From an uncultured Hormoscilla sp. (GTDB taxonomy: Bacteria; Cyanobacteriota; Cyanobacteriia; Cyanobacteriales; Desertifilaceae), in contig OZ001293.3 in NCBI GenBank assembly GCA_963921275.4, positions 2,912,001-2,976,000 of the forward strand: a stretch of DNA of 64,000 bases, given 5' to 3'. A program made the position numbers and the translations under genes. Under the pieces are notes generated by a model. That model was not told the origin of the DNA, searched no databases, and was given only the letters and a program-made list of their open reading frames with translations. Positions 984 through 37,100 of this stretch are shown piece by piece. The first letter of the stretch is position 1; each line of letters opens with the position of its first letter.

Positions 984-1286
984 ATGTTTCAATTGTTATA
1001 TTTTATACTACATGCCCTGGATCCGTTTCTGGTTCCGATTTGCTTTGTCTGTGCCTGGATGTTAGTGCTGATGGTAGCTTGGAGTCTCTGGAGGGCCGTG
1101 CGATCGGGGGTTGCGATTTTTCGCGCAGCGTGGGCCCAGATGATGCACCAGATCCCCTGTACCGGCTGTCAGTTTTTCACCAATGATTACCGGCTCAAAT
1201 GTACGGTGCGGCCTCAAATTGCCAATACCGAGAGGGCGATCGCCTGTTCTGACTATTCTGCCAAACAGAATCCTTTCAGTCTATAG
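984..1286 (+). CDS. conserved cyanobacterial small membrane protein with Cys motif; carries a 15-nt in-frame insertion (1115-1129)
   Basis: N-terminal TM segment; HQIPCTGCQFFTNDYRLKCTV. Confidence 0.7.
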   Translation: MFQLLYFILHALDPFLVPICFVCAWMLVLMVAWSLWRAVRSGVAIFRAAWAQMMHQIPCTGCQFFTNDYRLKCTVRPQIANTERAIACSDYSAKQNPFSL

Positions 1287-1302
1287 GGCGATCGCATTTT
1301 TG

Positions 1303-2326
1303 TCAGGTTTGCAATTGAAATTCTTCTGGAGAGATTCCCCAATTGACCCAACAAATTGCCTCCCGTGCTGATTCTACATCAGGAGGCACCCGCAATGCAT
1401 GAATGAATCCGGTGCTGGGGCAGGTCATTTTCAATAAATAAATTGGTTCGACATCCCCATCGATTCTCAATAAGGTATATTCTTGCCAAGTATCTAGGGC
1501 GATCGCCTGCAACTCTTGGATCATTCTGGCGTAGCCAATGAGTTAATACGCGCCGCAGTTCCGCATTATTTTCTGCTAAAATCCATTCCGATCGCCACTG
1601 GTGCGGGTGTAGCTTACCGTACTTTTCAGGTAATACTACTCCCTGATAAGCATAAACACTCAAACCATCTGCATATTGAATCGCTGGTCCCCCTTCTGCA
1701 TGCAGAAATAGTTGGTCGTCCAGAGAAATAGAGAAATAATTTTCGGGCGCGAACAAACAATACAAATCTTTTCAAACGGAAAAATCCAACCAGCGTTTTT
1801 CATCAGTCGCTGATATACATGTTTTTTGATAAGCTTGACAATTCAATTCTGAAATACAATAATCCAACAATCTTCCAAAATAAACAAAATTTTCTGTGAC
1901 GACAAAAACTATCTTCTAGCTCGATATTTATTCCAAGTTTGTTGTCTATCGCCGAGGAGATTTGAATTGCTCCTCCGAACGTTATTATTTGTCTTGCTTC
2001 TATTTCCCCAAATATCTCATCCTCTATCATCATCTTTTTTCTGAGTCTAATTACTAGAGCGAAATGTAATGGCGCAAATATTTCAGTTCTGTCAGAGAGG
2101 ACGATAAATTCAAGAAAATATGTCTCCAAGCAGAAGCGGGACTGTCCACAAAAATTATGTCTGGTTCTTCTGTGCCCATAAATTCATAGACAGCTTGTAT
2201 AGCTTCTGTTGCTTGGCTTCGATCTAGCGATGCAGTCGATGTAGCAATTTTCCACCATTTTTCCTGGTAAACTGGCATCATAGCTTCTTGCTCTGGCGTC
2301 AGTTGTTCGATCTTAGTTTGTGAGAT
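1303..2326 (-). pseudogene. DUF6745-like protein, fragmented
   Basis: KIEQLTPEQEA N-terminus, GWIFPFEKICIVC, ENNAELRRV and KMTCPSTGFIHALRVPP lie in different frames; 8-bp duplication AGAGAAAT near 1722-1737; start codon appears as ATC after an AGGAG. Confidence 0.8.
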
Positions 2327-2481
2327 CCTGTCGGACTCCTCCCTTTGCCTTCTTTGCTGATTATACATCAAACTGCACCCGCAATACATTAAATTTTATC
2401 TTTTTTGGGGGCCTCTCATATTTAATAATAGACTCTGCTCCATGCTATTACCCTCATGCATTCTGCCCCCTAGCCGCCGCG

Positions 2482-3216
2482 TTAATGAGATGCTCCCGTT
2501 TCTTGAGTATAGAGCGATCGCCCGCACGGTCCGCGGACGGCCCGAAAAATCGGGGTAGCCAAGTCCGGTCTACCAACCTCGCACAGGGCCCGATCGCGAA
2601 TGCGGCAAGAGTCGCAGGCCCCACAGGGAAGTTCTTCGCCCTGATAGCAAGAGTAAGTCTCTTGAATGGGAACCCCCAACTGCAAGGCGCGACGGACGAT
2701 ATCCGCTTTAGAATCTTTAACTAAGGGGGCAACCAATTTAGGGGCCTTGCCTTCCAGTCCCACTTGAGATGATAAATTAGCCAACTGACCGAAAGCTGCC
2801 AAATATTCCGGGCGACAGTCAGGATAGCCAGAATAGTCTACCGCATTAATGCCCAGATAGATAGCTGACGCCCCCTTTGCTTCCGCCAGGGAAAGGGCGA
2901 TCGCGATAAAGACGGTATTGCGTCCGGGCACATAGGTAATAGGAATTATCCCTGGTTTGACGCCATCAGTAGGTACGGAAACATTTCGGTCGGTGAGGGC
3001 CGAACCTCCCCACTGGGATAAATTAACATCTATGATATAATGTTCGGCAAGGTGCAACTCTTTGGCAATAGTTTGGGCAGCCTCTAGTTCCCGATCGTGC
3101 CGTTGCCCGTAACGAAAGGATATAGCTATAGTTTGGTAGCCATCGGCAATAGCTTGGGCCGCAGCGGTGGAGGAGTCCAGTCCGCCAGACAGGAGGGCGA
3201 TCGCCTTTTCGTTCAT
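2482..3216 (-). CDS. queC: 7-cyano-7-deazaguanine synthase; 24-nt in-frame insertion at 2528-2551
   Basis: [32 protein letters not shown]. Confidence 0.95.
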
Positions 3217-3217
3217 C

Positions 3218-3829
3218 TTATTTTACCTCCAAAAACTTGTGAGTTTGTAAACTCAAGCGCCATTGCGGGTGCTGCAAAATGTAAGCAAAAACCAGACTAG
3301 GACTAGAGGGAGTATTCCACTCAGGTTGCAGGTACTTCACCACAAAACTTTTCACCTTCAGGGCCTCTTGCTCTGCCCATTCTATATCCTGAGGGCTAGT
3401 AACGACAAACTTCAGTTCGTCCGCATGAGGATAGACAGAGGGGTGGGGAGGCTTAAATGTTTTTGGGGAAAGGGTTACCCAGTCAAAACTGCCAGTCAAG
3501 GGATATGCGCCAGAAGTTTCTAAATGGACTCGCAGGTGAGACTTTCGCAGTGCATCAGTCAGGGGAGTAAGGTCATGCATCAAAGGTTCTCCCCCAGTAA
3601 CGACCACAATAGCAGGAGTTGCAGCAGTAGCTTCTGCCACCAGATCGGGGACAGTCCACTGGGGATGAAGCTTTGGGTTCCAAGACTCCTTGGTATCGCA
3701 CCAAGAACAATGGACATCGCAACCCCCTAAGCGGATCAAAAAGGCGCTGACACCAGTCCAGGCACCTTCTCCCTGGATGGAGTGAAAGGTTTCTACTACG
3801 GGGTAAGTGACTTGAGTCAATAGAGTCAT
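3218..3829 (-). CDS. queE: 7-carboxy-7-deazaguanine synthase (radical SAM)
   Basis: [33 protein letters not shown]; adjacent to queC. Confidence 0.95.
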
Positions 3830-4052
3830 ACTCAGATCTGGGGCTACAAATCGCTATCGGGGCGAACTGCCCCTTGACAGTTATAATTTCATATTCTATC
3901 ATCCTTGTCAAGGGAGCGGACTTTGTGCTATCCTTACATAGAAGGAATTTTGGCCGGGTTTGAGCAGTAGCAGTTTAATGAGTAGGGAAGCCTGCGGTGG
4001 TGAGCGGTGGTGCCCTACTAAAAGATAACATAATATAAGGAGGTCATGGTTA

Positions 4053-4376
4053 ATGGCAACCAAGGACAGAATCCGCGAGCAGCTAACAATTTTAACTGCC
4101 CTGTGCGAAAGTGGTAATAGTAGTGAGATAGTGGAGCGATCACTCGATAAAATAATTGCCCATGAACTAGCCGTTTTCCAGCAGCTTGCAACGGAGTTAG
4201 CAGGAGAATTACAGCAATTTGAAGCCCAGTATAAAATGTTATCATCAGATTTTGAACAGCTCTTCCGGGCAGGAGAATTAGGGGATGATGTTGATTTTGT
4301 CGAGTGGAATGCTTTTTATAAAATGTGGTATTCCGTGCAAAAACGCCTCAAGATTCTTGGAGCTGAGCTAGACTGA
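4053..4376 (+). CDS. putative antitoxin (TumA-like; FE.QY.M.S..F...F..GELGDD.DF.EW)
   Basis: Motif resemblance; overlaps (TGATG) a truncated downstream toxin-like start. Confidence 0.55.
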   Translation: MATKDRIREQLTILTALCESGNSSEIVERSLDKIIAHELAVFQQLATELAGELQQFEAQYKMLSSDFEQLFRAGELGDDVDFVEWNAFYKMWYSVQKRLKILGAELD

Positions 4377-4691
4377 TGTTGTCAGAGCAGTATCTAATAG
4401 AAATAAAGGTGAGATTGCTGGCTAGTGTTGCTGTGATTTCCCTCACAATTGTCAAACAACGAGCCTTGCCAGAAAAGGGGTATTTTCGGGAGGATATGAG
4501 ACGGTATCTGTAATCCCTACAGCAGAACTTAACAGCCTGATGGAGACAGCCTATTTGTTCGGATCTGGTGAAAATGCAGCGCGTCTCCTAGATGCTTTGC
4601 AACGGGCAAAAGCACGAACGAATAAACATCGAACGATAGAAGACTTGCGTCAGGAGTTTGGACAAGGTATTAAAGAAGAGGAAAATTTATA
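4376..4691 (+). pseudogene. chimeric remnant: toxin (DUF6516-like) N-terminus joined to a Phd/YefM antitoxin C-terminus
   Basis: MLSEQYLIEIKVRLL...KGYFR, then in another frame SVIPTAELNSLMETAYLFGSGENAARLLDALQRAK. Confidence 0.55.
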
Positions 4692-4838
4692 AACCTGACA
4701 GTCCACAACTATAATCAAGGCGGGCGGTCGCCTTTACTAGGACTATGTCAATAGAAGCGATCGCCTTACATTCAGTCTTCTGATAGGGTGTGGTCAAAAC
4801 CCGTTGGTACTCGGCCTCGCCTTCTGTGCTCCGCACAA

Positions 4839-4890
4839 GCCCGAACCCTAAAGGGTCCGGCTATATGAACAAAGCCCGCCTGCGCGGGCT
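4839..4890. repeat. double-hairpin dispersed repeat (AGCCCGCCTGCGCGGGCT family); second copy in opposite orientation at 17395-17447
   Basis: Similar sequence and hairpins at both loci. Confidence 0.6.
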
Positions 4891-4924
4891 ATATACATGT
4901 ATCTGAGATGCACTCGGCTATCAA

Positions 4925-5305
4925 CTACTTATGACCACACCTTTCTGATAGAGTCAGCACTCCTGCTTTCCTATCAACAATAAGACGTAGATTTTCCAGC
5001 CAGGGTAAACCCAGCAAAATCTCACTAATTTCCTTCCCTCCTAAGACAGGAAAAGTAAACTCTTGACCGGCAAAAACAACTGTTCCTTCATATACATTTA
5101 ATCTTACATCTCCCCGTGCTGTTCGCATTTCCTGCTTGTCTATATGTAACCATCCCAAACTCTCCACATCTTGGATATCCATCGCTATCCAGTCAGTAAA
5201 ACCGGTGTCTAGCAACGCCTCAACTGTAATCACTGACCCATCAGCAGCAATCAAATCAATTTCAAACAATAGCTCACCTTTGCTACCAAAATATCCTTGA
5301 ATCAT
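4925..5305 (-). CDS. clan AA (retropepsin-like) aspartyl protease
   Basis: ALLDTGF, ILLGLPWL; start overlaps the upstream gene stop (ATGA). Confidence 0.85.
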   Translation of the reverse strand: MIQGYFGSKGELLFEIDLIAADGSVITVEALLDTGFTDWIAMDIQDVESLGWLHIDKQEMRTARGDVRLNVYEGTVVFAGQEFTFPVLGGKEISEILLGLPWLENLRLIVDRKAGVLTLSERCGHK

Positions 5306-5622
5306 ATTCTGCCACAAGTTCCTGTTTCATTCAATCGCATTGCCAAAATTTCTGCCCGAGGATGCTTCTCACGGGCTTTTTGCAAGGCGACTTTGTGATC
5401 CAGGTCAATAAAATAGTCTCCACTGTCTGGCTCAATCAGAATAAACCAGTCATAATGATCCTTGATTAATTCTGGGGAAACTCGGTCAAAAATCTCTCGG
5501 CAACGCTTGCCAAATGCGTCATCGGCGGCCATGCGTTTTTCTATCTCCTCTTGAGAAAGGCGAGGCCGATCGGGAAACAATGGCATACCTCTTGGCACCC
5601 GCCTGCGGGTTTTCTGAATCAT
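5302..5622 (-). CDS. small protein partner of the aspartyl protease (DUF5678-like), copy 1
   Basis: IEPDSGDYFID...MRLNETGTCGRI; SD-like AAGGGAG upstream. Confidence 0.75.
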   Translation of the reverse strand: MIQKTRRRVPRGMPLFPDRPRLSQEEIEKRMAADDAFGKRCREIFDRVSPELIKDHYDWFILIEPDSGDYFIDLDHKVALQKAREKHPRAEILAMRLNETGTCGRI

Positions 5623-5707
5623 CTTTACAACTCCCTTCTTCATTCTCTCACCTTAGTTTAGCATCTTCTGGGCTGCGATCGCCATCTTCTGCCCAAATCT
5701 CCTTGAA

Positions 5708-6019
5708 TCATATTCTACCAACACACCTCGTTTCATTTAAACATTTTGCCAGAATTCTGGCATAGCCGTTCGCGGGCTTTTTGGAAGCTGACCTCTCGAT
5801 CAAGATGAAATAATCTCCACTGTCTGGTTCGATATGAATGAACCAGTCGTAATGCTCTTTGACTAATTCCGAGTAGACTCGCCAAAATATTTCTCAGCAA
5901 CGTTGGGCAAATTCTTCATCTGCGGCATTGCGTTTTTCTATCTCCTCTTGAGAAAGGCGAGGCTGATCGGGAAACAGCGGCATACCTCTGGGCACCCGTC
6001 TGCGAGTTTTCTGAATCAT
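5708..6019 (-). pseudogene. copy 2 of the same small protein, inactivated
   Basis: Near-identical to copies 1 and 3, with an internal CGA>TGA (~5893-5895) and small deletions. Confidence 0.8.
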
Positions 6020-6104
6020 CTTTACAACTCCCTTCTTCATTCTTTCATCTTAGTTTAGCATCAAATGAGCTGCGATCGCCATCTACTGCCCAAATCTCCT
6101 TGAA

Positions 6105-6425
6105 TCATATTCTGCCACAAGTCCCCGTTTCATTCAAACGCATTTCCAGAATATCTGCTGTAGGATGCTTCTCACGGGCTTTTTGAAAGGCTACTTTTGG
6201 ATCTCGATCGATGAAATAGTCTCCACTGTCTGGTTCAATCATGATAGCCCAGTCATAATGTTCCTCGATCAATTCTGGGGAAACTCGGTCGAAAATCTCC
6301 TGGCAACGCTTGCCAAATGCGTCATCGGCGCGGGCGCGTTTTTCTATCTCCTCTTGAGAAAGGCGAGGCCGATCGGGAAACAGTGGCATACCTCTGGGCA
6401 CCCGTCTGCGAGTTTTCTGAATCAT
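6105..6425 (-). CDS. copy 3 of the same small protein
   Basis: Intact paralogue of 5302-5622. Confidence 0.75.
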   Translation of the reverse strand: MIQKTRRRVPRGMPLFPDRPRLSQEEIEKRARADDAFGKRCQEIFDRVSPELIEEHYDWAIMIEPDSGDYFIDRDPKVAFQKAREKHPTADILEMRLNETGTCGRI

Positions 6426-6510
6426 CTTTACAACTCCCTTCTTCATTCTCTCACCTTAGCTTAGCATCTTCTGGGCTGCGATCGTCATCTGCTGCCCAAA
6501 TCTACTTGCG

Positions 6511-6718
6511 TCATATTCTACCACAAGTTCCTTTTTCATTCAATCGCATTGCCAAAATTTCTGCCCTAGGATGCTTCTGACGGGCTTTTTGCAGGGCGAC
6601 TTTGTGATCTGGGTCAATGAAATAGTCTCCACTGTCTGGCTCAATCAGACAGTCATAATGTTCCTTGATTAATTCTGGGGAAACTCGGTTAAAAATCTCC
6701 CAGCAACGCTTGCCAAAT
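6511..6718 (-). pseudogene. copy 4 (5'-truncated) of the same small protein
   Basis: FGKRCWEIFNRV...MRLNEKGTCGRI; N-terminus replaced. Confidence 0.75.
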
Positions 6719-6719
6719 A

Positions 6720-6839
6720 CCGAAGGTGGTATAACTTGGAGTCTGTGCGATTGTATGCCACCACCGATACCCCACCTGCTAATAGCTTTTGCGCCATTGG
6801 CAGTCCCATTAGCCCAGTTCCAATTAATCCAACTTTCAC
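6720..6839 (-). pseudogene. N-terminal fragment of an NAD(P)-dependent oxidoreductase (3-hydroxyisobutyrate dehydrogenase-like)
   Basis: VKVGLIGTGLMGLPMAQKLL..G..V.AYNRT Rossmann start, truncated after ~40 aa. Confidence 0.75.
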
Positions 6840-7047
6840 AATAACCCTTGATCGCGCCATTTGAGATCATACCATAAGAAGGGGCAATATTGGTGGGCGG
6901 TGCCCACCCGACAATTAAGTACATAGGCAAAATTATTTTGATATTTTTCCTCTGAGCAGGGAGAGGGGAGAGGGGATCAGGGAGAAATGTTTGCACAAAT
7001 GATGCCCGACTAGCTATAAAAATAATTTTGCACAACTACTTAACTAT

Positions 7048-8041
7048 TAGACATCTCCAAAATAGAAATTTATGCTATAATAAGATTTGAAAATTTAATT
7101 TTGTGACGAGTATTACCTGGACATATTTGCAAGCCAAGCCTAAAGAAGCAAAACGGCTCATCGGTATCAGCTATGAAAACTTAATACAACTTATTGCAAT
7201 TGCTAAAAAGTTGGATAAAAATCATAAAGAAAAGGTGGAAGAACACAAAACTAGATTGATACGTCGGAGGAGCGAAACCTAAAGGATTAACATTCCAAGT
7301 ATTAGGTATACTTTTGTCAGTGAAAGCTAATGATATTTTTAATTATTGGCAAGAGCTTTTGCCGTTTACTTGAACAAAAAAATGGAGAAGATGAAGAATA
7401 TTTATCCAAACACAGAATATGAGTTGATAGTCGATAGCGCAAGCCATACCAAGACCTAAAGACTATGAAGAGCAGAAAAAGTTTTACTCAGGTAAAAAGA
7501 AATACCATACTTTGAAAAATCAATGTTTTACCTGGTAGCGAAGCGTGCAGATATTGTCGATGTTGTATCTGGAGAAAGAGGCCCAGCAAGCGATATAAAT
7601 CTTGCGAGCGTCGTTTTCGATCCAGATCAAATTTTTGCAGGTGATAAAGCCTATATTGGAGAACCTCAAAACTCCTCAAACCGAAAAAACAGGAATTAAC
7701 AGCTAAACAAAAAGAAGAAAATAGAGATTTTTCTGATAATTTTCGTTGAACACGTCATAAGATTGGTAAAAATTTTCCGGGTTGCCAGCGAGCGATTTCG
7801 GTTAAATATTGATAAATATGAATCGGTAATTTCGACAAAAGTTGGGTTGGTTGCGCGAATTTTAGAAGTATTAGAATCTGTTGATAGCTCTGAAAAACTT
7901 GAGATTAACCAGTACCACCTTTGGAGCTCTTTATTAACAGGAAATCTATCAAACCCAGATTCTGCCGTTTGAGTAACATATGTGAGCATGGGAGGTAGAG
8001 CTTAAAACCCAGAGCTGACAAGGGTTTTATTTTGAGGTCTA
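7048..8041 (+). mobile_element. degenerate IS5-family (ISL2/IS702-like) insertion sequence
   Basis: Ends TAGACATCTCCAAAATA / TATTTTGAGGTCTA; transposase pieces (KRLIGISY, LIVDS, EQKKFYSGKK, HTLKNQ, GDKAYIG, IFVEHVIRLVKIF) in shifting frames. Confidence 0.8.
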
Positions 8042-8051
8042 TTAACAATCT

Positions 8052-8672: not shown

Positions 8673-8741
8673 AATCAAAAATGGCAGAATTTTTTCAATT
8701 CTGCCATCGTGCAAGCTATATTAACAAATGGGAAACATCAA

Positions 8742-15054: not shown

Positions 15055-15065
15055 CCCTATCAATG

Positions 15066-17772: not shown

Positions 17773-19623
17773 TTACTCAAATGCTGGATAGATATCGTTT
17801 TCAAAGATATCCTTAATCCAACCAGGCAAGAAGGAATACTTGGGATCGTAAACGTTAAGATCCGATCGCAGGTCTACTTTGTAAGTAGATGTTCGGGGAG
17901 CTATTTCCGGTATCCAAGCCGCGTGCAGGGGAAAAGCAAACTTGACCTCGGGATGCCGCAGTTTGGCAACGGGACCGGCAGCCAGATTTCCCGCCTGCCA
18001 AATCCAGAATTCCGAATATTCTGGGGTGGAGACCATAGCCACCAGATAACCTTCTAACTCATTATTCTGACCGAGCTTGGGAAAGTAAACCGTAGTGGTA
18101 ACGCAGGTTCCCCGAGGGGCAGCCCAGAAATCCTTTACTTCCATATCCCCAGGGGACCATCGCATCACCCCCGCTTCTTTCCATCGGGGTAGATCCTCTA
18201 TGGGAACTTCTCGGAACTCGTGGTGTTCGTACAGTTTCACCAAACGCCTGGGAGTAATTTCGCTGATGTAGCCAGTGAAATTCACCCAAAAATTTGCAAA
18301 CTCTGGGGGACTGGTTTCTTGAATGCCATTATAAGTAGGAAGGGCAATCCCCCAGAAGCGATCGGACAACTGGTATTTGCTGCTCTTTATTTCCCCCGTC
18401 TGGGCGTTGACCACGTATTTGCCGAATCCTTGCTGGTCGTAAACTCCCGGAGGCGAGCCATGGAAAGGCGCGCTTACCCAGTCATCAAATGTCGGCCAGC
18501 TCGCGTCCCATCGCCGGTTCCATTCACTCACATCGTGTCCGGAAGCATGCAATAAATGCAAGGTGACATCATCGTTGTCATCGTCATAGTTGGCAAAGAA
18601 GTGAACGCACTCCCGGGGGATCTCGACGTATTTGGCCCAAGCAGTAGCTATCTCTTCTTTTCCATCATTGAGCTGCGCTCTGGGCACAAACCAGACTTGG
18701 TTGTATGGGGACTGGGGCTTCGCTGGAGCACCGGGAATCATTATCCGATAATATTCCATGGTAAATGCCGTGTCAATGATGATGATATAATTGCGCGTGA
18801 CGGCAATTTGATGGGTTGACTGTTTAATTACCACTGGCTCTTTGGTGCGATCGTCGATAATCCGAGTAGTCTTAAATTTCCCGGTGCCATCCCAAACCTG
18901 TATGTAGGCATCGGGTTGAATGCTGCCTAGGGCAATGGGAATTTCAAAAATCGTATTGATGATGAAAATTTACCCGGTGCGATCGTCGTAAGCAGGATGA
19001 GCGGCGCTCATGTGCATGGGAAAGATCCAGGGAAACTTGATGTGCGGGATATTCGGGATGCCGTCAATCTCCATTTTCATCCACTCGGAGCGCTGGCCCA
19101 CCGGCGTGACGGGAGCGAAGGTGGTCGGATCGAAATCAAACGGACGGCCCGAGTCAATGGTAGCCATCATCCGCCAAGAACCATTGTCTGGGTCTTGAAA
19201 GGCTTGAAGGCCAGTATGACATTGGTTCTGCACTCCTAGGAACAGGTTAAGACGCGCCAAACCCATCTTGTTGCTAAACCGATAAGCCCTTCTCCAGAAC
19301 TTCCAGAAGGACTGCTCTTGAATTTTCAGATCGCAGATGATGGACGGTGTATGAAAAGGTCCGCTTTTTAGATGCACCCGATTTTTCGGGCCGTCCGCGG
19401 ACCGATCGCCTTTAAAGTCTAAGCGATACAACTGCCTGTAGCCATTAAACCAAGGGGTATCTCCCGCTTGGGGTGTAGGCACCATCCAAAATGCGTGTCC
19501 CGCCATGTCCGTAGGTATGGACCCCTCAATTGTATTGAGGTCCAGGTCGAGAAGTGCCGTGTTTTGGTAGCGGATGTGGGTGGGAAAATCGGGAGGACTC
19601 ATAAATTTAGCCTGCCAAAGCAA
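17773..19623 (-). pseudogene. carotenoid oxygenase (RPE65/CCD) family protein with one in-frame TAA (18970-18972)
   Basis: Four candidate Fe-ligand His motifs (SAAHP, STHQI, CVHFF, PLHAAW); the frame continues across the stop. Confidence 0.8.
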
Positions 19624-21022: not shown

Positions 21023-21277
<255 letters not shown>

Positions 21278-21462: not shown

Positions 21463-21597
21463 GGTGAGCACCCCTCACCAGAATGTAGTATTTTTTTACC
21501 AACTAATGCAAGACCACACTCGTCGTCATCTGACTGGCGGACCCCAGGGGATCCCGGGGAAACTCCGCATCATTACATAGATCAGCAGGCCCAGATG

Positions 21598-21734
21598 GTA
21601 TATGCTGAGAGGCAAATCATATATGCTGAGAGGCAAATCATATATGCTGAGAGGCAAATCATATATGCTAAGAGGCAAATCATATATGCTGAGAGGCAAA
21701 TCATATATGCTGAGAGGCAAATCATATATGCTGA
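21598..21734. repeat. tandem repeat, 21-nt unit ATATATGCTGAGAGGCAAATC x~6.5
   Basis: Direct inspection; no spacers. Confidence 0.95.
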
Positions 21735-21943
21735 TTTCTGGAAATACTCGTGCAGTTCTTGCACCTTGAGTAGATCGAGTATGTGGTGCGCTACTGAGGT
21801 TTGTCACTACAAACCTCAGAAAAATCGGTCACCCAATCTTGCTGTAGCAACAGGTCTGCTAAATAGAGATAGGTATGTGCTAACAGTTCTAGTGTAAGAT
21901 TGCTGCTGTTGCAGGGATAGCACCTCCTGATGGCAAAACGTTG

Positions 21944-24825: not shown

Positions 24826-27739
24826 TTAGAACACTTCCAGATCGAAAGGGACGAAACTTCCATTCAACTCGTCTGGTGCCACCCGGTTAACCATGCCTAA
24901 AATCAGATTGGAGTCGGCAATTGTGATCATAGTATTGGTGCCCAATGATTCTAGAATTATATCATCTGAAGTTAATCCACCCGTTAGCCCGATCGCATCT
25001 TCTGCCACCTGAAAGTCCACGAGGACATCAACTTGCGATCTGTTAACCACTGCTGCCTCAGGGGACAGGACGAAAATATCACTGCCCGGACCGCCCAGGA
25101 GAATATCTTGACCAGATCCGCCATTGATAGTATCGTCTCCTGCACCGCCCTGGATGAAGTCATTTCCTCGACCTCCAAGGAGTTCGTCATCGCCCATACC
25201 GCCAGTCAGGCTGTCGGCACCGGGACCAGCAAAGATAATATCATCCCCTGACATGCTATCGATCGTATCGTCCCCGCCAAAGGAGATAATTAGATCGTTC
25301 TCAGGGGTGCCCATCAGCATATCGTCCCCTGGGTTCCCTCGGATCAGATTTACAAACTCCGGTGGCGGTTTTACATCACCACCGGAAATGAAGAATTGGG
25401 CCTCTTCCCAAACCGCCTCGCCCACGTTGCGCCCGAGGATTAATCCCTCTTCGTTCCCAGCAAAATTATGAATCCCACCATAGAGGCAAGAGATCCCCGA
25501 CGATGTTGCTGCATCGGAAAAGGTATCCCAACTCAGAGTCACCGGTTCGGCGGGCGTGATTCCCGGTTCAAACAAAGACTCTCCAGCAGGTGCCGTCACC
25601 GAAGCCCCAAATTGATCGCTACCTGTAAACCGCTGGAGAACTTCCGCCGCAGCGCTGCTGAAGGCACTGTGTCCCGATACATATTCAGCCAAGGGAGGAG
25701 TGGGACTTTCCAAGCGCTGGTAAGGGATAAATTCCGATCCATCTAGTTCGACAGTGCCCTGTCCCGGACCGCCCCAAGCTTCGATAGTTTGACCGCCAAA
25801 CAGAGCCTCGATCGCCGTGATCGGACGCACGTAATCATAGAATACTTTTGCTTCCCAGGCCACAATCCCCGCATCCATGACAGCGTTACCCAACATGAAG
25901 AACATCTTGGCGTCTTCATCCAGGGTGTTATCGTCCCGTTCGGAAACGAACTGGCCAAAACCCATCCAGGTACCGGGAGGAAAGGATGATCCCGGTCCAT
26001 CTTCCCAGAACTCCGCAACAATTTTGCGCTCGTCGTTGAGGTTGGCGCTGATCTCGATAACTTCCTCATGCAGCGTCAGGAACTCCTCGCTGCCAAACTC
26101 CGGCGGTGCTGGGGGTCGGAATTGGTCCCCTGATTCTAGTCCAAAGGGAATCACTTCGCCCCACTGAGGGGTGAGGAACTGTTGGACTGTGCCATCTGGG
26201 TCGCGCAAAGGTTGCAGCAGGGGTTGCCAGCGGTTCGGATCGACGATCTCCTCTCCCTGGGGAGGATTTACTGGCTCGTAACCCGTATAGTCGGAGTAGG
26301 GCAGACCATCATTTGGATGGGGTCGAGCCGGGAATCGCTTCCCGACCCTCCCTTGAGGAACCGGACTTGCGATTTTCACCGCATCCGGCTACTGGGTACT
26401 AGGCCCTTTTCATAGGTAGACTTAATAGGAATTACTTCCGTTAGCCCTTGCCGCCTGTCTTTTCTTCCCTTTCCTGGTTTAGCGAGTGGTTGTTCTGATA
26501 ACCGTTAGTATCACCATTTTCAAGTCAGTTTTACCAGTTATCCATACCTTATCCTCCACTTGCGTTTCGGATTAGTTCCGTGGCTTTTTAGGATTACTCA
26601 TTCCAGCAGCTTCCTAGTATCACCGACCCACGTCAGCACTGGCTACCCAGCATCATCTACATTACTGTAGATGTTATCCCAGGAATTACCCCGGGCATTC
26701 GCTTCTTGGGCCATCCCTCCCCCCGTGGCTTGCGCTTAACATCTAACTTGTCCTGATGGACAGCACACGAGAGGTTACTTCGTTCCCTAACAACATTTCG
26801 CGATACCTTTAGGTCCACACTATACCCCGGGAGCTATTTGAGTACTATATTAGCCAGAGTCTAAAACTAATACTAGCTACCATTTCCTTTTTAGGCCAGC
26901 GCATATAGCCTTATTTCGCTGGTTCCTTATAACGAGGCTTGCACATGTTTGCCTGCTCTAACCTTGGATATCTTTCCTAGCGGCGTCACCGGCTTAGGCT
27001 GCCAGTTATCCTACATTTGAGTCCTCGCTTAGCACCACGATGATGTCGCTTCGTAGCACCGAGGACCGGTGTCACCCCCGTACCTGGGGGGAGGGGAATT
27101 TAACCCCCATGCGGTCAGAGTTCCCGGCTAATGAAACCGGGCTAGCGTTCCGTGTTTGACCACGTTAGGCTAGAACGAATCGCACAGATCCCCTAACTGG
27201 TTGGAACCGTCGTTGCGGCGAAAGTCGAGTAATGCCTGGGCCGAGACATTGCCAATGCCTGCGGGGGTAGAGTTGTTGTCTGGGTCTAGGCCCAGTTGTT
27301 CCATGAGGCTATCGAACAAATCTACCTCTGTGGGAAACAGGTCTTCCAGCACCCGATAGGCCGCATAACTCATGGCCTCGGTTTTGTTTTCCAGGGTATT
27401 TTCCTCGGCGGGCCGTTGCAGGTCGTCACCCAACTGGGTGCCGATGGCCTCTGGGTCGTATGCTGCCCAGGCATCGAAGATCGCCGTATGCACCATCCCG
27501 TAGGCGCGGGAGGCGATCGTCGGTCCTACACCTAAATTGCGGACTGCTTGCTGTGCCGCCTCATCCCACAAAACCGAGGGCGTTATCTCTTCGGTCGCAT
27601 CAGTCAGGGTCCTGTCGGGGTTGAGCCAAAAAATCCCTATGGGTTCCCCGTCCACTTCGCCGAAGGAGACGGGACTGATACCAACACCGTTTATCCATCC
27701 TAGGCCGTCATTGGTGAGTTCTATTTCGATCGGATCCAT
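24826..27739 (-). pseudogene. vanadium-dependent haloperoxidase with C-terminal RTX Ca-binding repeats, interrupted by a group II intron
   Basis: 5' part GPTIASRAYGMVHTAIFDAW..DGSNQLGD; 3' part PYSDYTGY, AEFWEDGPG, DYVRP, EYVSGHS, SCLYGGIH and GGxGxD repeats. Confidence 0.85.
26317..27185 (-). ncRNA. ORF-less group II intron (869 nt)
   Basis: 5' GTGCG; domain V AGCCGGATGCGGTGAAAATCGCAAGTCCGGTT (26358-26391); domain VI hairpin with bulged A, ending CCCCAT; no RT ORF. Confidence 0.9.
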
Positions 27740-29870: not shown

Positions 29871-29900
29871 TTGACAATTACAATTTAAACTATCTATATT
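29871..29900 (+). promoter_or_regulatory. sigma70-type promoter candidate
   Basis: TTGACA-N18-TATATT. Confidence 0.45.
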
Positions 29901-29906
29901 TAAAAT

Positions 29907-30153: not shown

Positions 30154-30734
30154 CCTATGGAACTTCGATATAGTATAAGGTAACCCATAATTGGGCGATC
30201 GCCCTAAAAAGATCTACTGATTCACGAGCACTCTGCGCCCGCGAGACCAGCTAAGAAAGCCAGTTTTTTGTCAAAACTGGCTTTCTGGGGTACTGGGGAG
30301 ATACCCTCAATACTTCTCGGTTAAGCAATAAATTCGGAGTGGGGAGTGGCTTACAGGGGTATGTTTTTTAGATTTCGGTCAATACTTCAAGGTTTTGCAT
30401 TTTATTTGTCATTGCGAGGGGGGGGAGGTTGATTGTCACTACCCTTTGGCCCAGATCCCATCCAGTTTGTAACTTGAGGTAATTTTCTGCGAAAAAGTTG
30501 AGCTTTGGACCGATACCTCTGTAGAAGGAGCTCACGGGGTCTTGTTGGAACCGGTTGCTTCCCTGAGGTTGAGTTCAAATATTTCGTGGAGATTTTCTAT
30601 GTCAGGCAAATACGTGAAAAAGCTGGCGATCGGAGCGGACTGGAACCGGAAGTTGAAGATGGGTGCAGCTCATTTGTAGTTGCATTAGTAGAGCAATTTT
30701 AGACTCTGGTCGGTATTTGTGCCTACCGGCTTAT

Positions 30735-32207
30735 TCATCGGGGAAAAGTTGGCAAGTCAATTGCGGCCAGGGACTTAATCTTCTTGTGGGGACGGAGGGG
30801 ATAAACTAGAGGAGAGGGGGACTTTGTAGAGGAAAGCAGGGACAACGTCTCGGCATCCACCGTGCCGGAAAAATCGGAACCCCCCTCTGAGGCTTGCTCT
30901 TCGCTTTGGTGGCTTTCTTGCTGCTCAAAGATAGATGCAACGTCGGAAAGTGAGTCCTCTGGAGTTTGCTCATTCCCTATGCTTGAAGAGTTATCTACTG
31001 CTGCTACTGTCTCATCAGTCAAGTCCTCACCAACTTCAGAATACTCATCCTCTAATTGTTCCGAGACCGAAGCCATTACCGATAACTCATTTTCAGGGGA
31101 AGCGAGTTCCTCTGAGACTGCGGACTCTGATACCCCAAGGGTTTCTCTGGGTCGATCCTGCTGTGAGACGGGGGCGCGAACGCTGCGCGAAAAATCGACA
31201 GTAGGAGTATCGGCAGATATCTGCCAGTAGTCAGGCTCACCCCAAGCCTGCCCAGGTACTGCATCCGACTCTTCTGGATCGAGATATAATTCAAGTTCTG
31301 CTAATTCAGATGCTGCTGACCAGGGTTGAATTGCTGGCGCTTTCGGGACAACTCCCTGTACGATCGCTCTGGTATCTGTTTCCTGTTGAGTGCTCCGACC
31401 CACCGTTCCGGAAAAATTAGCCGGTTGTTCCGGACCCGTCATCTCCAGGCATTTGTCCAGGGCATTTTTGAATTGCAGGGTGTAGCGTTGCTGCCGGTAC
31501 AGACGCGATCGCAAATCCCGGCAAATCGTTTCCGCTTGGGAAAGCTTAGTTGTCTGTTCCTCGTAGCGTTGCTGAGTAAGAGCACAATCTCGTTCCAACT
31601 GGGCCACTTGTTGTTGGTTAGTTTCCAACTGCCCGCGGAGTGTTTCTATGAGAATTTGTTGGCGAACCGTTCCGGAAAAATCGGAAGTTTGCTGGCCAAG
31701 TTCCTTTTCCTGCTGCACCTGAGAGTGCTGTTTTTTCAAGCTATGCAGTTCTGCGGACTGCTCGGAGAGTTTGGCCTCTTGAGCTTGACAATGCTCCTGA
31801 TATAGCTGCAATTGCCTTTGAGCAACTGCCAGTTCTGATTCTAACTGCATTACCCGATCGATCAAATCCGTGTTTGACTCTACCCGTACTTCTGCCGATG
31901 TCTGGTCGGTGTCTCCGGAGTAGTGCGAGTAGCGCTCTCCGGAGACACCGAAGATGTCTACCGTTCCGGAAAAATCGGGGTTTTCGCGCACATCGCGCAG
32001 CGGCGCGACGATAGGAGCGCTGCGCAGCCGCTGCGCAGCCGCTAGCGTCCCGAAGACATCGAAAGGGTCTGGAGGTTGCAAGTCTTGTACTGTCGCCTCG
32101 ATGGTTGACTCTAAGCTATTGGTGGCTCCGGGAATGTCATCTAATGGTCGATTTTCAACTAGTTCTTCTGTTGGCAGGTTATTTGGGGTGTCAGCCGGTG
32201 TACTCAT
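30735..32207 (-). CDS. coiled-coil hypothetical protein carrying many small in-frame insertions
   Basis: RQQILIETL..LERDCAL..CRDLRSRLYRQQRYTLQFK; C-terminal SPSPLVYP..P.KK.KSLAAIDLPTF. Confidence 0.8.
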   Translation of the reverse strand: MSTPADTPNNLPTEELVENRPLDDIPGATNSLESTIEATVQDLQPPDPFDVFGTLAAAQRLRSAPIVAPLRDVRENPDFSGTVDIFGVSGERYSHYSGDTDQTSAEVRVESNTDLIDRVMQLESELAVAQRQLQLYQEHCQAQEAKLSEQSAELHSLKKQHSQVQQEKELGQQTSDFSGTVRQQILIETLRGQLETNQQQVAQLERDCALTQQRYEEQTTKLSQAETICRDLRSRLYRQQRYTLQFKNALDKCLEMTGPEQPANFSGTVGRSTQQETDTRAIVQGVVPKAPAIQPWSAASELAELELYLDPEESDAVPGQAWGEPDYWQISADTPTVDFSRSVRAPVSQQDRPRETLGVSESAVSEELASPENELSVMASVSEQLEDEYSEVGEDLTDETVAAVDNSSSIGNEQTPEDSLSDVASIFEQQESHQSEEQASEGGSDFSGTVDAETLSLLSSTKSPSPLVYPLRPHKKIKSLAAIDLPTFPR

Positions 32208-32289
32208 AATTTTTCGGACTATTAAAGGATCTCAAGAATGGATTGCGGGGCTGCTGCCGACACCCCAAATTAATACCAATAGTATGATT

Positions 32290-33357
32290 TTAATCTCTAC
32301 TCTGCCCATCTGGGGCTAAAATTTGATGCAATAAATCTCGATGACTCAGGGCCCGGTCTACAAGGGACTGAATTTGATTGGCATCTAGGGGAGCTCTCTG
32401 GCGGAAATGTGCTAACCAGGTTTTGCTAAGAAGATGGGGATCCTCTGGCATTTGGGCTAACTGCCATCCAGGTAGAGCCAGTTCTGCCATCAGTTGGTCT
32501 ACCTTCGGATCGTAACTGACGGCTATGCATTGACATTGGGCTGCTGCTGCCATAATCATAGCATGCAGGCGCATGGCGATCGCCATCTGTACCCCCTGAA
32601 ATACCCCTTTGAGAACTTTGGGATCTTCGAGCATGATAATTTGGCTGACTCCCGATAGCTGGGGTCCGATGGCCTGGGCGATCGGCATCTCGATGTCTGG
32701 TTGAAAGAGGAGGAGTAAGATGCTGGCATTGGTAGCTTGCTGAAATAGTACCAGAGCCCGGGTGAGATTGTCCAGTCGCTGTGGTGTCAGTTGGGGGTGT
32801 GGGCGCAATGTGACGGCAACTCTCGGTTCTGGTAAGTCCCGCAGTGCTGGGACTGGTTTTGAGTCTAAGGCCCAAACGGGGTCTGGTGCTAAATTATAGG
32901 GTATTTGCCATGCTTGCAGGACGGCAGCTGAGGCTCGATCGCGGACCGAGACTGCCGTGCAACCAGCAAAGGCCCGCCGCGCGATCGCCCGAGTCAGGGG
33001 ACGGTGTAGGGGGCCAATTCCCTGGGCCCAAGCAATTGTTTTCAAGCCCATCTGTTGTGCTAATCCCATCAAACCACTATAGTATAGAGGACTAAGAGCG
33101 CTAGTGGCATCTTGGATTAAACTACCGCCGCCCCAGATGAAAACCTCTGAGTTACTTAATGCTGACAGGACTTGGAACGCGGATAGGCGATCGCGAGAAA
33201 CCACCCCGTAGCGAGTCTGGGTTTGGTGAGGATTTCCTGACAATACCAAAGGCGTCACATTTTCTGGTAACATTTGCAATAGGGTGGCCAGCAATGCCTC
33301 ATCGCCGCCATTACCTTTACCATAGTAGCCGCACAATACCGCCCTAATTTTCTTCAT
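32290..33357 (-). CDS. csaB: polysaccharide pyruvyl transferase
   Basis: CGYYGKGNGGDEALL, GGGSLIQD, SVRD, MRLHA, SYDPKV. Confidence 0.92.
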   Translation of the reverse strand: MKKIRAVLCGYYGKGNGGDEALLATLLQMLPENVTPLVLSGNPHQTQTRYGVVSRDRLSAFQVLSALSNSEVFIWGGGSLIQDATSALSPLYYSGLMGLAQQMGLKTIAWAQGIGPLHRPLTRAIARRAFAGCTAVSVRDRASAAVLQAWQIPYNLAPDPVWALDSKPVPALRDLPEPRVAVTLRPHPQLTPQRLDNLTRALVLFQQATNASILLLLFQPDIEMPIAQAIGPQLSGVSQIIMLEDPKVLKGVFQGVQMAIAMRLHAMIMAAAAQCQCIAVSYDPKVDQLMAELALPGWQLAQMPEDPHLLSKTWLAHFRQRAPLDANQIQSLVDRALSHRDLLHQILAPDGQSRD

Positions 33358-33398
33358 TTTATCTTAGCTTTCCATTCTCAATTCACCAATAGTAATTT

Positions 33399-33701
33399 AT
33401 GCATGCTCTCTCAATTCCAACTTGGATCATTCACATATCTAGCGTCATTGAGTGGATCGCCGCCATCTGGTATATCTGGACCTATGGCGAACTGACGCGC
33501 GATCGCACTTGGTACGGGTTATCATTAGCGATGCTACCAGCACTGATCGGCGCCATGTGTGCTTGCACCTGGCATTTTTTTGATAACCCTGCATCTTTAG
33601 AATGGCTCGTTACTCTACAAGCAGCGATGACAGTTTTAGGTAACTGCACCGTCTGTGCTACTGGTTGGTGGATCTGGCGATCTAGTCTCAGCGAACAGTG
33701 A
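33399..33701 (+). CDS. ycf49: Ycf49/DUF2499 membrane protein
   Basis: MHALSIPTWIIHISSVIEW, MCACTWHFFDN. Confidence 0.85.
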   Translation: MHALSIPTWIIHISSVIEWIAAIWYIWTYGELTRDRTWYGLSLAMLPALIGAMCACTWHFFDNPASLEWLVTLQAAMTVLGNCTVCATGWWIWRSSLSEQ

Positions 33702-33755
33702 GCATTACCAGTGCCGGAGTTCATCAGCAATCAACAATTAACAATCAACAAATAG

Positions 33756-34046
33756 ATGATTTCTAAAGACACGCTGTTTGCGTTATCCCTGTTTCCCTAC
33801 CTAGGATTTCTGTGGTTTATTACCCGCTCGGGGAAAATGCCGCGTTTATCCCTGATAGGATTTTACATGACTCTAGTGTTTGTTGGCGTCACCATTCCAG
33901 CGGGTATTTACTCCCAGGTAGCCTATAGTGAATCTTTAGCAAATGTAGATTGGCTGCACGGAGGCGCGGAGTTCTTTTTAACCCTGTCGAATATTTTGAT
34001 TGTCCTGGGTTTCTATCAAGCGGTGAGGGAGAAAAAGCAGGAATAA
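33756..34046 (+). CDS. DUF3593 membrane protein
   Basis: LFALSLFPYLGFL, LANVDWLHGGAE. Confidence 0.85.
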   Translation: MISKDTLFALSLFPYLGFLWFITRSGKMPRLSLIGFYMTLVFVGVTIPAGIYSQVAYSESLANVDWLHGGAEFFLTLSNILIVLGFYQAVREKKQE

Positions 34047-34174
34047 ACAGGACTTTTATGGATGGCTAATTGTGAATTGTCCCTCGTTTATTAATATCCA
34101 TAGCGCAGTTCATATCGCGCGGCGCGCGCGTCGCGCCGCAATTATAAATTCGTTCCAGACAAGAAGTGTTAGTG

Positions 34175-37100
34175 TTATCGAGATAATGATTGCAGCCAAA
34201 CCTGATTATTGCGCAACTCTCGTAGACTTGCTATAATTTTCACTGCATTTTCTGGATCTTGCACCCAGAATTCATGTCCAAAACGAATCACACGACGAAT
34301 GTGAAAGTCTTTACCCTCGACGAGCGCGAGCACGGGAACTTTGGGTTTATGGGTCTCTCCTGAGAGGTCTTTCAACCTTGATGATAGTTGATTGTGAAAT
34401 ACCTTACTACTAGCCATCTTATCGGTCAGTTTCATCACCACCAGGTAATTGAGTTCAATCCGGACAGCGTCTGACACCATCAGCAACCACCTTTCGGCAT
34501 CCTGTTGTTGCACTTTCCCCCAAAGCATGACAAGGCTGTCCTCCCACCGTTCCGGAAAAATCAGAGATGAGCCAATTTTCTGATACAGCTCTGGTTTAAC
34601 AATGGCCACACCCGATCCAGTCAAGTCCTTAAGCACCAGAAATGTCAGGCGTGAGTCCTCTGGTTTATGTTCAGTATGATGGACTTCTTCGATCGTAGCA
34701 ACCACCCGGACAGCTACTTGGGAGTGCTGTTGTGACAGATGGCTGAGATTAATCGGATCGAGACCCAGTTTTTTCGCTGTGAGTTGTACGGACTTCAGGT
34801 GCTGGAGTTTTTGCCGATCGATTTCACCTTTTGTTTGGGTTGGCGATCTGAAGCGATCGCTATCTGGAAAAACGTAAGACTGCTGCGGCGTCCTCAAACG
34901 CACCAACCGCTGCTCTGATTTGACGAACGCTGCGCGAAAAATCGACTCATTTTCTTCTGGTTCTGACTGAGGTTCCATATTCATCTTCTGGTGTTTTGGT
35001 GGCTGGCTATCTGAGGCGATCGAGGATCTCCCCCCGGGGGTTTCAACCCCCGACAACCCCTGACCATAAGGGGGGAACCCCTCATTTTCTTCTGGTTCTG
35101 ACTGAGGTTCTATCTCGATTTTTCGCGCAGCGTTCTCCTGTTTTGGTGGCTGGGTATCTGAGGCGATCGAGGATCTCCCCCGATTTTTCGCGCAGCGTTC
35201 CTCCTTCCCATACATCTCGAACCGATCTATTTCCGGTTCCGACTGGGGTTTTGTTCCGGAAAAATCGTCCGACATCAACTGCTCCTCTGGTGGCTGGAAG
35301 TCATCTATTTCTGGTTCCCACTGGGGTGCGGATAACATCCTCTGCTGCTCTGGTTTTTCAGCATTATCCACGATCAACTGAACTTTTTGTTCATCCTGGC
35401 GATCGGGTTTCCCTATGAGGATCCGTGGATTATCATGTTCGAGCAACTCTTCAATATCTTCATAACTTTTGGGAAAGACGATCGCTTCTGCTTTTCCAGT
35501 CAGGTCTTCTATTTGCATAAATGCCATGCGATCGCCATTTTTCGTGATATGCTGTTTCACCTCTGTAAGCATCACTAGGACTTTAATCTGTGTTCTGCCT
35601 TTTTGCTCCTCTAGCTGGTCCAAATTTATGGCATCTTCCGGTCGCTGCACCGATTTCAGGGGATGAGCCGAAACGTAATATCCCAAGTATTCCTTTTCCC
35701 ACTTCAACTTTTCTTCCACGGTACAATCCTTAACAACCGGTAGCTCCGGAGCCGGTGACTTAAAGCTTTCCATGTTAAATAGAGTCAGCTGGGAGCCGGA
35801 GTTAAGGCTATTTTTATTTTTCTGTGCCCACTCGGTCACGTCTTTGAGATATTCTAATAATTGATAGCGATTGGAGTTTATCATATCGAATGCTCCACAT
35901 TTGATTAAAGCTTCCAAAGCGCGTTTGTTTACCGCCTGCAAATCTAGACGATCGCACATCGAAGCCAGATCCTGAAACTCACCACCCTCTTTCTGGGCCT
36001 TAATAATAGATTCTATTGCATGTGTGCCCAGATTTTTCACCGCCGACAGTCCAAATAAAATCTTTTTTCCCTCTGGCCTAAATTTCACTCCAGAGCGATT
36101 AATATTTGGTCCTTCTACCTCAATGCCCATTTTCTTACAATTAACGATATATTTTTGCACCTTATCCTGGTCGGAGCTGTTTTCACTCAGCAGCACCGCC
36201 ATATATTCTTCGGGATAGTTCGCCTTTAAGTAAGCCGTTTGATAGGTTACATAGGCATAGGCTGTAGAATGAGATTTGTTAAAGCAATATTCGGCAAACT
36301 TCACCATTTGCTCGAATAAACTTTCCGCTACATCTGTATGTATACCATTTTTTGCCGAACCATCTAGAAATTTTTCTCTATGCTTTTGCATTTCTTCTGG
36401 CTTCTTTTTTCCGATACTTCTCCTCAGTAAATCTGCTTGACCCAAGGAATATCCTGCCAAATCTTGAGCTACTTTCATAATCTGTTCTTGATAAACTAGA
36501 ACTCCGTAAGTTTCTTTGAGAATTGGCTCCAGCATGGGATGTTCGTAGGCAATTTTTTCCCGACCGTGCTTGCGATCGATAAATTTATCAACCAGTCCCG
36601 CATCCAAAGGTCCAGGTCGGTACAGGGCTAGAATCGAAGATATATCTTCTATATTATCAGGTTTCAATTTCTGTACCACCTGACGCATTCCCGAAGATTC
36701 TAATTGAAAGATGCCTTCTAAATCCCCTTTCCCTAGCAGCTCGTATGTTTTTTTGATATCTGGGGGAATTTTCTTTACTGTTCCTTTTGCAAAAATTTTC
36801 CAAGCTTCTCTCTCCTGTAGGGGAAATTGGTCTGGATTTATATCAAATTTACGAGTTTCTTTAATCAATTCTACCGTATTCTGAATAATCGTCAAGTTTT
36901 TCAATCCCAGAAAGTCCATTTTTAACAGACCCAGAGATTCCAGTTCTTCCATCGAATACTGAGTGATCGCCGCCCCTTCATTATTCTTTTGCAGCGGCAC
37001 AATTTCATCCAACGGTTCCGCTGAAATCACCACTCCCGCTGCATGCACGCCAGCGCTTTTGTTTGTCCCTTCTAACCGCATCGCCATATCTATCCACTGG

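Follow-up and report, generated by a model that had tools for sequence, protein, structure and literature searches.

A family of short hairpin elements in a Hormoscilla contig

The DNA considered here, called the window throughout, is a 64-kb stretch of contig OZ001293.3 from an uncultured Hormoscilla sp., and it carries a family of very short elements with the architecture T5-hairpin-T, most of which lie within protein-coding genes. In protein searches the window proteins are closest to those of Hormoscilla spp., filamentous sponge symbionts, and the HIP1 octamer (GCGATCGC), a cyanobacterial signature, occurs 51 times. A preliminary description made from the letters had listed 14 copies of 15 or 24 nucleotides (nt). 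All are present where it had placed them, its flank counts (C before 11 of the 14, GT after 12) are right, and translation bears out its list of insert peptides. A fifteenth member, overlooked there, lies at 21793-21824 on the minus strand; it starts GA^TTTTTC (a caret marks the junction here and below), has a 26-nt hairpin and is 32 nt in total. The family in the window comprises five type A copies (GATTTTTCGCGCAGC-GT), six of type B (GATTTTTCCGGAACG-GT or near variants, of which one starts AATTTTTC, one has a loop C and one has a degenerate 3′ end), three 24-nt copies and the one of 32 nt; five are on the plus and ten on the minus strand. Across the family the lengths are 15 nt (9-nt hairpin), 24 nt (18-nt hairpin) and 32 or 50 nt (26-44-nt hairpin). 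The members and the two genes that hold five each are, by position:

1117..1131, plus strand: 15-nt type A element (TTTTTCGCGCAGCGT), after GCGA; IFRAA added to a small, conserved CxxC protein, open reading frame (ORF) 978-1286
2526..2549, minus strand: 24-nt element (TTTTTCGGGCCGTCCGCGGACCGT) in the C-terminal tail of QueC; eight residues added
19382..19405, plus strand: 24-nt element with a final A, at CCCGA^TCGCC (HIP1-like); the host is the N-terminal piece of a split oxygenase of RPE65 type
21136..21159, plus strand: 24-nt element in a DUF433 gene, core variant (CGGCCGGACGCGAACC); eight residues added, the Pfam match being 64 residues against a 56-position model
21793..21824, minus strand: 32-nt relative, TTTTT + 26-nt hairpin (C TGAGGTTTGT AGTG ACAAACCTCA G) + T; follows CCGA, length not a multiple of three
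30735..32207, minus strand: host gene of P0001 (490 residues), acidic, coiled-coil-like, no Pfam family; five elements
30859..30873, minus strand: 15-nt type B element, loop variant CGGCACG, in P0001; read DFSGTV
31180..31194, minus strand: 15-nt type A element in P0001; read DFSRS(V), empty site GTCGA^TCGCG
31402..31416, minus strand: 15-nt type B element in P0001, flanking GA mutated to AA; read NFSGTV
31666..31680, minus strand: 15-nt type B element in P0001; read DFSGTV
31960..31974, minus strand: 15-nt type B element in P0001, within a 52-residue segment found in the window only; uninformative about boundaries, as no orthologue covers the site
34175..38662, minus strand: host gene dnaE (1495 residues); five elements, all after the OB-fold domain (Pfam matches end at residue 1102)
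34546..34560, minus strand: 15-nt type B element (TTTTTCCGGAACGGT) in the conserved C-terminal part of DnaE; read IFPER
34927..34941, minus strand: 15-nt type A element in dnaE; read IFRAA, then F, empty site TCGA^TCGTC
35119..35133, plus strand: 15-nt type A element, opposite to dnaE; read NAARK, reconstructed empty site GAGA^TCTCC
35184..35198, plus strand: 15-nt type A element, opposite to dnaE; read RCAKN, reconstructed empty site CCCGA^TCC
35250..35264, minus strand: 15-nt type B element with degenerate 3′ end (..GGAACAAA) in dnaE; read DFSGT

ORF 978-1286 encodes a real conserved protein, with 451 homologues at E <= 0.001, while the sole ORF at the 32-nt copy (21595-21897) belongs to no Pfam family. 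The motif exceeds a composition-matched null: GATTTTTC has 19 matches on the two window strands against 4.66 +/- 1.97 expected from 100 dinucleotide shuffles (largest 12), and GATTTTTCNNGNA has 11 against 0.29 expected, a more than 30-fold excess. One GATTTTTCNNGNA match, at 48481, is without a hairpin and outside the family; the remaining four or five GATTTTTC matches are likewise without one, and their number is what chance predicts. The copy first placed at 31404 begins AATTTTTC and escapes exact-match searches.

Eleven of the 15 copies fall in two stretches, the gene for P0001 and the region of DnaE past its OB-fold domain. Target density was rejected as the cause of this clustering, CCGAR (R, A or G) occurring 7 times per 1473 nt in the P0001 gene, about the window mean of 242 per 64 kb; selection or local hopping might explain it. 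Both stretches are read here as poorly constrained: P0001 because it has no Pfam family, and the part of DnaE with the first four inserts because there are many indels among its orthologues there.

A second small genic hairpin repeat, (G)TGTCTCCGGAG-AGCGCTAYTCGCACTA-CTCCGGAGACA, occurs at window 31906-31950 (minus strand) and at L057:3090-3127 (L numbers denote loci of the collection scan described below). Its window copy is 10 nt from the type B element at 31960, in the 52-residue segment of P0001 that no orthologue has.

Empty sites and exact junctions

Orthologues were sought for three of the host proteins in a large protein collection and for one in a representative library. Ten window sites, in P0001, DnaE, QueC and ORF 978-1286, are empty in the aligned sequences of close relatives, and the earlier claim that the repeats are insertions is upheld by these empty alleles. 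Orthologues of P0001 that are 88-95% identical over aligned positions are without the five-residue inserts at four window sites (dots stand for gap positions). At site 31180, P0004 and P0007 read TVD.....RA; at 31666, P0004, P0006 and P0007 read QTSD.....RQQ, and the more distant P0008, P0010, P0015 and P0018 are also empty; at 31402, P0004 reads PAE.....GRS and insert-bearing relatives have DFSGTV; at 30859 the readings are GSE.....DA in P0004 and GSE.....NA in P0007, with outgroups also empty.

Four of the five DnaE inserts are absent from one or more close orthologues. At 35119 these have KQE or KQQ and then an I/L/M-E tract without NAARK (KQE.....IEMEP in P0122 and P0123); at 35184 they read YGKED.....RGRSS and at 34927 ENESI...VKS, and at 34546 the sequence of P0122, GSSLR.....EDSLV, matches the prediction exactly. 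The fifth, at 35250, is common to P0122 and P0123 and absent from P0127. The eight-residue insert of QueC is missing in all nine aligned orthologues, including one from Hormoscilla with 93% identity (P0135), and all 13 aligned homologues of ORF 978-1286 are without its extra five residues. There are reverse cases as well: at least three sites empty in the window, KLSE^QS, TRA^IVQ and EYSE^VG, are filled in P0001 orthologues, with FSGTV or NAARK.

Since the more distant relatives never carry any insert (P0008, P0010, P0015, P0018, P0128, P0129 and P0132, together with the nine QueC orthologues and the 13 homologues of ORF 978), the filled state is taken to be the derived one, and on this protein-level evidence the inserts are derived, polymorphic insertions. 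The crown Hormoscilla clade has the elements, and the relatives from which P0008/P0128 and P0010 come are without them in the orthologous genes compared. P0001 and dnaE share one contig in at least four relatives. On the gene tree of P0001 two sites require at least two changes each. That tree conflicts with the one for DnaE, and recurrent insertion, precise excision and recombination are therefore inseparable here. The family has been active recently, because copies differ between close Hormoscilla genomes and the abundance of the subfamilies differs between lineages; type A makes up 5 of the 11 15-nt copies in the window against 1 of 66 in four other Hormoscilla genomes, among the matches listed. 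An all-against-all comparison of the Hormoscilla loci gave six orthologous pairs, with no element-sized indel.

The exact ends were examined with a script that removed either the 15 nt delimited in the preliminary description (GATTTTTC + 7) or the 15 nt after GA, and then translated the remainder. All nine informative 15-nt sites match deletion after GA and none of the nine matches the earlier boundaries, the true ends lying 2 nt further right at each of them. The informative junctions are KQE^IE, KED^RG, ESI^VK and SSLR^ED in DnaE, TSD^RQ, PAE^GR, TVD^RA and GSE^DA in P0001, and VAR^AQ in ORF 978, where the family consensus is xRAxx. The target proposed at first, C^GT, fits none of the nine; the insertion falls after GA. 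No obvious duplication had been noted at the outset, and where a type B copy is followed by G the junction cannot slide, which leaves no room for one. Judged from these junctions, the element is TTTTTC-NNGNANN-GT, inserted between GA and the next base with no target-site duplication.

Scanning the collection with the type B 17-mer returned at least 106 stretches, and among the matches listed are 62 from four Hormoscilla assemblies, 8 from Methanoregula and 36 singletons, the last as expected by chance. The Methanoregula metagenome-assembled genomes (L018, L036, L048, L049, L058, L063, L066 and L085) hold the 17-mer GATTTTTCCGGAACGGT 10 times, in a longer AT-rich array with units like aaaatcgNtgatcgatt and unrelated flanks; they were rejected as relatives, and the resemblance is probably coincidence. 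With the window included, the matches listed give 74 non-redundant 15-nt copies, 68 of type B and 6 of type A (68-74 depending on deduplication).

GA precedes 14 of the 15 window copies, the exception being mutated to AA; it formed part of the scan pattern, and its frequency is unbiased only for the window copies and the empty sites. Among the 74 15-nt copies, C occupies the two positions ahead of GA 63 and 65 times, and the base after the element is A in 34, G in 32, T in 8 and C in none. Type B thus prefers CCGA^R, and four of the six type A copies are in GA^TC. A search for the 24-nt form gave 11 matches, one of which was dropped as a type B copy plus flank (window 30875), and 6 of the 10 kept among those listed are in CGA^TCG. 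One 50-nt copy divides a perfect HIP1 (GGCGA^TCGCC). For type A, many 24-nt and the 32-50-nt copies the target is often (C)GA^TCG, the central part of HIP1 with its GATC core. Few of the possible targets are occupied: of the 242 CCGAR and the 153 CGATCG sites in the window, at most about six each.

A further hairpin repeat, like CCCACCC[A/T]TGTCGT...ACGACA[G/T]GGTGGG, adjoins some 24-nt copies (L005, L038, L065 and L023), which suggests nesting or shared targets.

Hairpins, reading frames and host proteins

When the forms were folded at fixed lengths with DNA parameters, the C of TTTTTC paired with the G before the last base in five of six. The stem of the 15-nt forms, at first given as 2 bp, is one of 3 bp around GCA or GAA in which that C pairs with the G of GT; the main 24-nt form has 3+3 bp around TCCG, and the 32-nt form 11 bp around AGTG. 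The last folds at -11.5 kcal/mol, a value that none of 500 core shuffles reached. Core shuffles as low in energy were a fraction of 0.016-0.06 for the 15-nt forms, 0.058 for the main 24-nt form and 0.462 for the core variant first placed at 21134, in which pairing begins one base further in. Automatic delimitation of hairpins by minimum energy produced long spurious structures and was discarded. The covariation of the stem that had been pointed out is real in that two of three pairs are swapped on both sides, yet it rests on a single difference, that between type A and type B. Four unrelated stems stand on identical flanks, (CC)GA^TTTTT...T^, and nothing argues more strongly for recognition of the hairpin together with its flanks. 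Type B copies also occur in pairs, in the same orientation, 25-54 nt apart and within one ORF, at L042:3001-3043 and at L068 and L046:3001-3071; the second copy of L042 has a broken stem (CAGAACG).

As had been proposed, what is repeated is the nucleotide sequence and not a peptide motif. All six frames and both strands are in use: in the longest covering ORF the 75 copies distribute as 24, 10 and 6 over the frames of the same strand and as 17, 7 and 11 over those of the opposite one, and the commonest reading, DFSGTV, accounts for 24 of the 75. The 15-nt units of types A and B are stop-free in all six frames. It is true that the copies listed initially are all inside ORFs, but so, for ORFs of at least 100 codons, are 85% of random window positions (elements, 9 of 9), and in the 6-kb loci 29 of 40 elements are in such ORFs against 86% of 1720 random positions. 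The elements are tolerated in genes, not attracted to them. The 15- and 24-nt forms can survive there because their lengths are multiples of three and, for the 15-nt types A and B, because they are stop-free; the 32- and 50-nt relatives are not multiples of three, and the 32-nt copy of the window is where there is no supported gene.

The in-gene copies lie mostly in loops, tails and disordered-looking segments and add 5 or 8 residues. The suggestion that short peptides are written into the proteome holds to the extent that copies lie in the predicted frames of DnaE, QueC, HisF, SufS and further genes; a preference for genes is not part of it. Likewise the replicative polymerase does carry five copies in the DnaE frame, but all are C-terminal to its last Pfam domain and none is in the catalytic core. 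HisF and SufS, in other Hormoscilla loci, are well-folded enzymes, and their inserts fall at gaps in alignments with solved structures (4evz and 1t3i respectively).

Several features of the host proteins and of neighbouring genes deserve mention in their own right. Among DnaE orthologues of 1710-1936 residues, P0122 and P0123 have intein domains PF14528 and PF14890, and P0126 has PF14890 only; the window DnaE (1495 residues) has no intein domain. Some window genes look split or decayed (17773-19623; 24826-27739; 45777-50400): the RPE65-type oxygenase and a DUF6851/VCPO gene are each in two ORFs, and a protein kinase N-terminus is detached from its body. Two neighbouring ORFs at 56284-58198 encode DUF2887 proteins, which we take to be related to the PD-(D/E)XK Rpn-type recombination nucleases. 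Genes for C-5 cytosine DNA methyltransferases are present at window 61698-62828 (minus strand) and at L051:4896-6017 (minus strand), and may be relevant to methylation of HIP1/CGATCG.

Movement and comparison with known systems

The reading that we favour, and regard as on balance the probable one, is that these are very small non-autonomous insertion elements, which belong to a single structural family and are moved in trans by a hairpin-recognising enzyme. A host- or insertion sequence (IS)-encoded enzyme would recognise the single-stranded hairpin with its T5 flank, and would cut and join at GA^, by analogy with the HUH/Y1 transposases of the IS200/IS605 and REP-RAYT kind. Recognition, as first suggested, would be of a hairpin of single-stranded DNA or RNA. 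Relics of IS200/IS605 in the Hormoscilla loci indicate that this IS family is there now or was formerly. They are a TnpB pseudogene (L004:3979-5256; OrfB_IS605 + Cas12f1-like TNB), itself broken by a type A insert (RCAKN) and another repeat, and an IscB-like ORF with RRXRR and HNH domains (L045:436-1314, minus strand). A 50-nt family member lies in a perfect HIP1 about 105 nt downstream of the TnpB pseudogene. That the long hairpin is the end of a TnpB insertion sequence was considered and rejected: the L004 copy splits the HIP1 at the usual GA^, and the 32-nt copy of the window has no neighbouring TnpB ORF.

A number of points weigh against movement in trans by such an enzyme. No Y1/HUH transposase, RAYT, reverse transcriptase or recombinase is among the 60 window ORFs (64 kb) or the 178 ORFs of about 270 kb of Hormoscilla loci, so that the co-distributed gene foreseen in the preliminary description did not appear in the 238 ORFs scanned. 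Orientations are mixed within 350 bp of dnaE (5 against 10 in the window as a whole), a mixture at odds with a strict lagging-strand bias. The two ends of known HUH substrates differ from each other and are longer, and a single hairpin of 9 nt is, to our knowledge, far smaller than any such substrate. The empty sites were deduced from protein alignments and are not alleles at the DNA level, of which none was found among 106 loci that barely overlap the window region. Neither model of the ends fits the 24-nt junction in QueC exactly, insertion after GA needing one later T-to-G change, and this site was counted for presence or absence only. In half of the 24-nt copies the last base is A, not T, and TCG always follows it, for which we have no explanation. 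Finally, the stem covariation amounts to one event, its observed values being equalled in 13-34 of 500 shuffles of seven distinct 17-mers.

Absence of a transposase from the scanned ORFs is what would be expected if none were involved, and the main rival, which we think unlikely but worth serious attention, dispenses with one. A methylation-linked nuclease directed to HIP1/GATC would nick GA^TC, and repair of the nick, whether through gene conversion or microhomology-primed synthesis, would copy in a short hairpin cassette present at another locus. It would suit the occurrence of both orientations and the sites of four of the six type A, 6 of the 10 24-nt and two of the four long copies in GA^TC or CGA^TCG, one long copy splitting a perfect HIP1; moreover, directed cutting at HIP1 is proposed for the precise insertion of SDR5 in Elhai 2015 (PMC4390886). 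Yet type B, the most abundant, is in CCGA followed by A or G in 66 of 74 copies and in GA^T in 8 of 74, the 153 CGATCG sites of the window are nearly all unoccupied (at most about six are), and copying by repair should import flanking homology, of which none is seen.

The want of a DNA transposase gene in the scanned sequence would also be compatible with reverse transcription of a small hairpin RNA into nicked targets by an enzyme of retron, group II or diversity-generating retroelement type, and the hairpin could be read as RNA, though that is a general point only. This is very improbable: the 238 ORFs include no reverse transcriptase, the copies are full length with exact ends, and there is no target duplication, variable 5′ truncation or A-tail. 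Least credible of all is that nothing moves, and that repeated slippage, selection for a peptide such as DFSGTV or assembly artefacts account for the repeats. DFSGTV is indeed the commonest reading (24 of 75 copies), but conservation is of nucleotides and not of peptide, six frames and both strands are used, some copies are in short-ORF contexts, the motif is more than 30-fold above chance, and identical 17-mers recur at 62 or more loci in four independent Hormoscilla assemblies as well as in the window, which is itself part of a contig listed at 6.88 Mb.

To return to elements moved by a hairpin enzyme, the family is apparently one of the smallest kinds of insertion element on record. The stronger claim, that the 15-nt T5-hairpin-T, pasted seamlessly at GA^ (including the centre of HIP1) by an enzyme acting on single-stranded DNA hairpins, is the smallest sequence-specific mobile DNA element known, is possible but rather doubtful. 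If it were true, the small dispersed repeats (SDRs) of Nostoc and the Hormoscilla family would belong to one cyanobacterial system as its two branches, with HIP1/GATC sites as landing pads, and protein loops of five and eight residues would be continuously written and erased. How repeats on the 20-nt scale move has been an open question since 2008, and the present family offers a clean handle on it, with exact ends, no duplication, a target of 2-4 bases, four interchangeable hairpins on one pair of flanks and several close genomes that differ at many sites; a search for the enzyme by co-distribution and tests of the reaction on short oligonucleotides are therefore feasible. Acceptance by DnaE, HisF, SufS and QueC of repeated insertions of five or eight residues bears on the evolution of loops and linkers, and the in-gene inserts bear on the annotation and alignment of cyanobacterial proteins.

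A literature search found no paper for the motif strings or DFSGTV, and for in-frame mobile hairpin repeats in cyanobacteria it gave only an intein paper; the Hormoscilla genome paper (PMC6520454) does not deal with transposases, mobile elements or insertions and uses 'repeat' in other senses. Going by descriptions only, the nearest known kind is Elhai's small dispersed repeats, from which the family is set apart by host, size, junction and architecture. These, SDR1-8, were reportedly described from Nostoc and relatives by Elhai et al. in 2008 (Genome Res 18:1484) with lengths of 21-27 nt, a range that contains the 24-nt form and exceeds the main form of 15 nt. Alike are the very short dispersed repeats, the HIP1-rich cyanobacterial setting and the deduction of mobility from presence and absence, and for SDRs, as here, we know of no enzyme. 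SDR5, of 21 nt, is HIP1-associated in a few heterocystous cyanobacteria and its function was still called unknown in 2026 (PMC13756078); its insertion is precise, between bases 3 and 4 of HIP1 (PMC4390886). The junction here instead follows base 4 of HIP1 (GCGA^TCGC) or is CCGA^R. The host is Hormoscilla, not one of the Nostocaceae, outside which no SDR-like repeats were found according to a third source (PMC5861425), and the architecture is a defined T5-hairpin-T.

REPs and REPINs, in the account of two papers (PMC3116915, PMC3733652), are short many-copy hairpin repeats whose stem has a conserved unpaired tag at one end, thought to be moved in trans by a Y1 HUH enzyme; REPs are there described as extragenic, of 20-40 nt, with a GTAG or CGTC tag and often paired. 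The Hormoscilla elements resemble them in being tagged hairpins in many copies but are T5-tagged, as short as 15 nt, mostly single and freely genic (HisF, SufS, QueC, DnaE), and no RAYT is among the 238 ORFs of about 64 kb plus about 270 kb. IS608 and ISDra2 go in 3′ of a target of 4-5 nt, duplicate none of it and are recognised via DNA hairpins, and the IS200/IS605 family has two distinct subterminal hairpins (left and right end, LE and RE), usually tnpA and/or tnpB, and a lagging-strand bias. Shared with these are insertion 3′ of a short specific sequence, absence of target duplication, seamless ends and a hairpin; different are the single hairpin, the lack of any gene, the adjacent copies in both orientations and the absence of tnpA from the scanned DNA. 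Rickettsia palindromic elements, of about 100-150 bp, code for an entire segment of peptide and lack a defined GA^ target; the likeness is confined to an in-frame position within genes. HIP1 itself spreads by substitution without indels (PMC13756078); the Hormoscilla elements are discrete insertions of 15-50 nt, and the HIP1 core is one of the targets favoured by type A and the longer copies.

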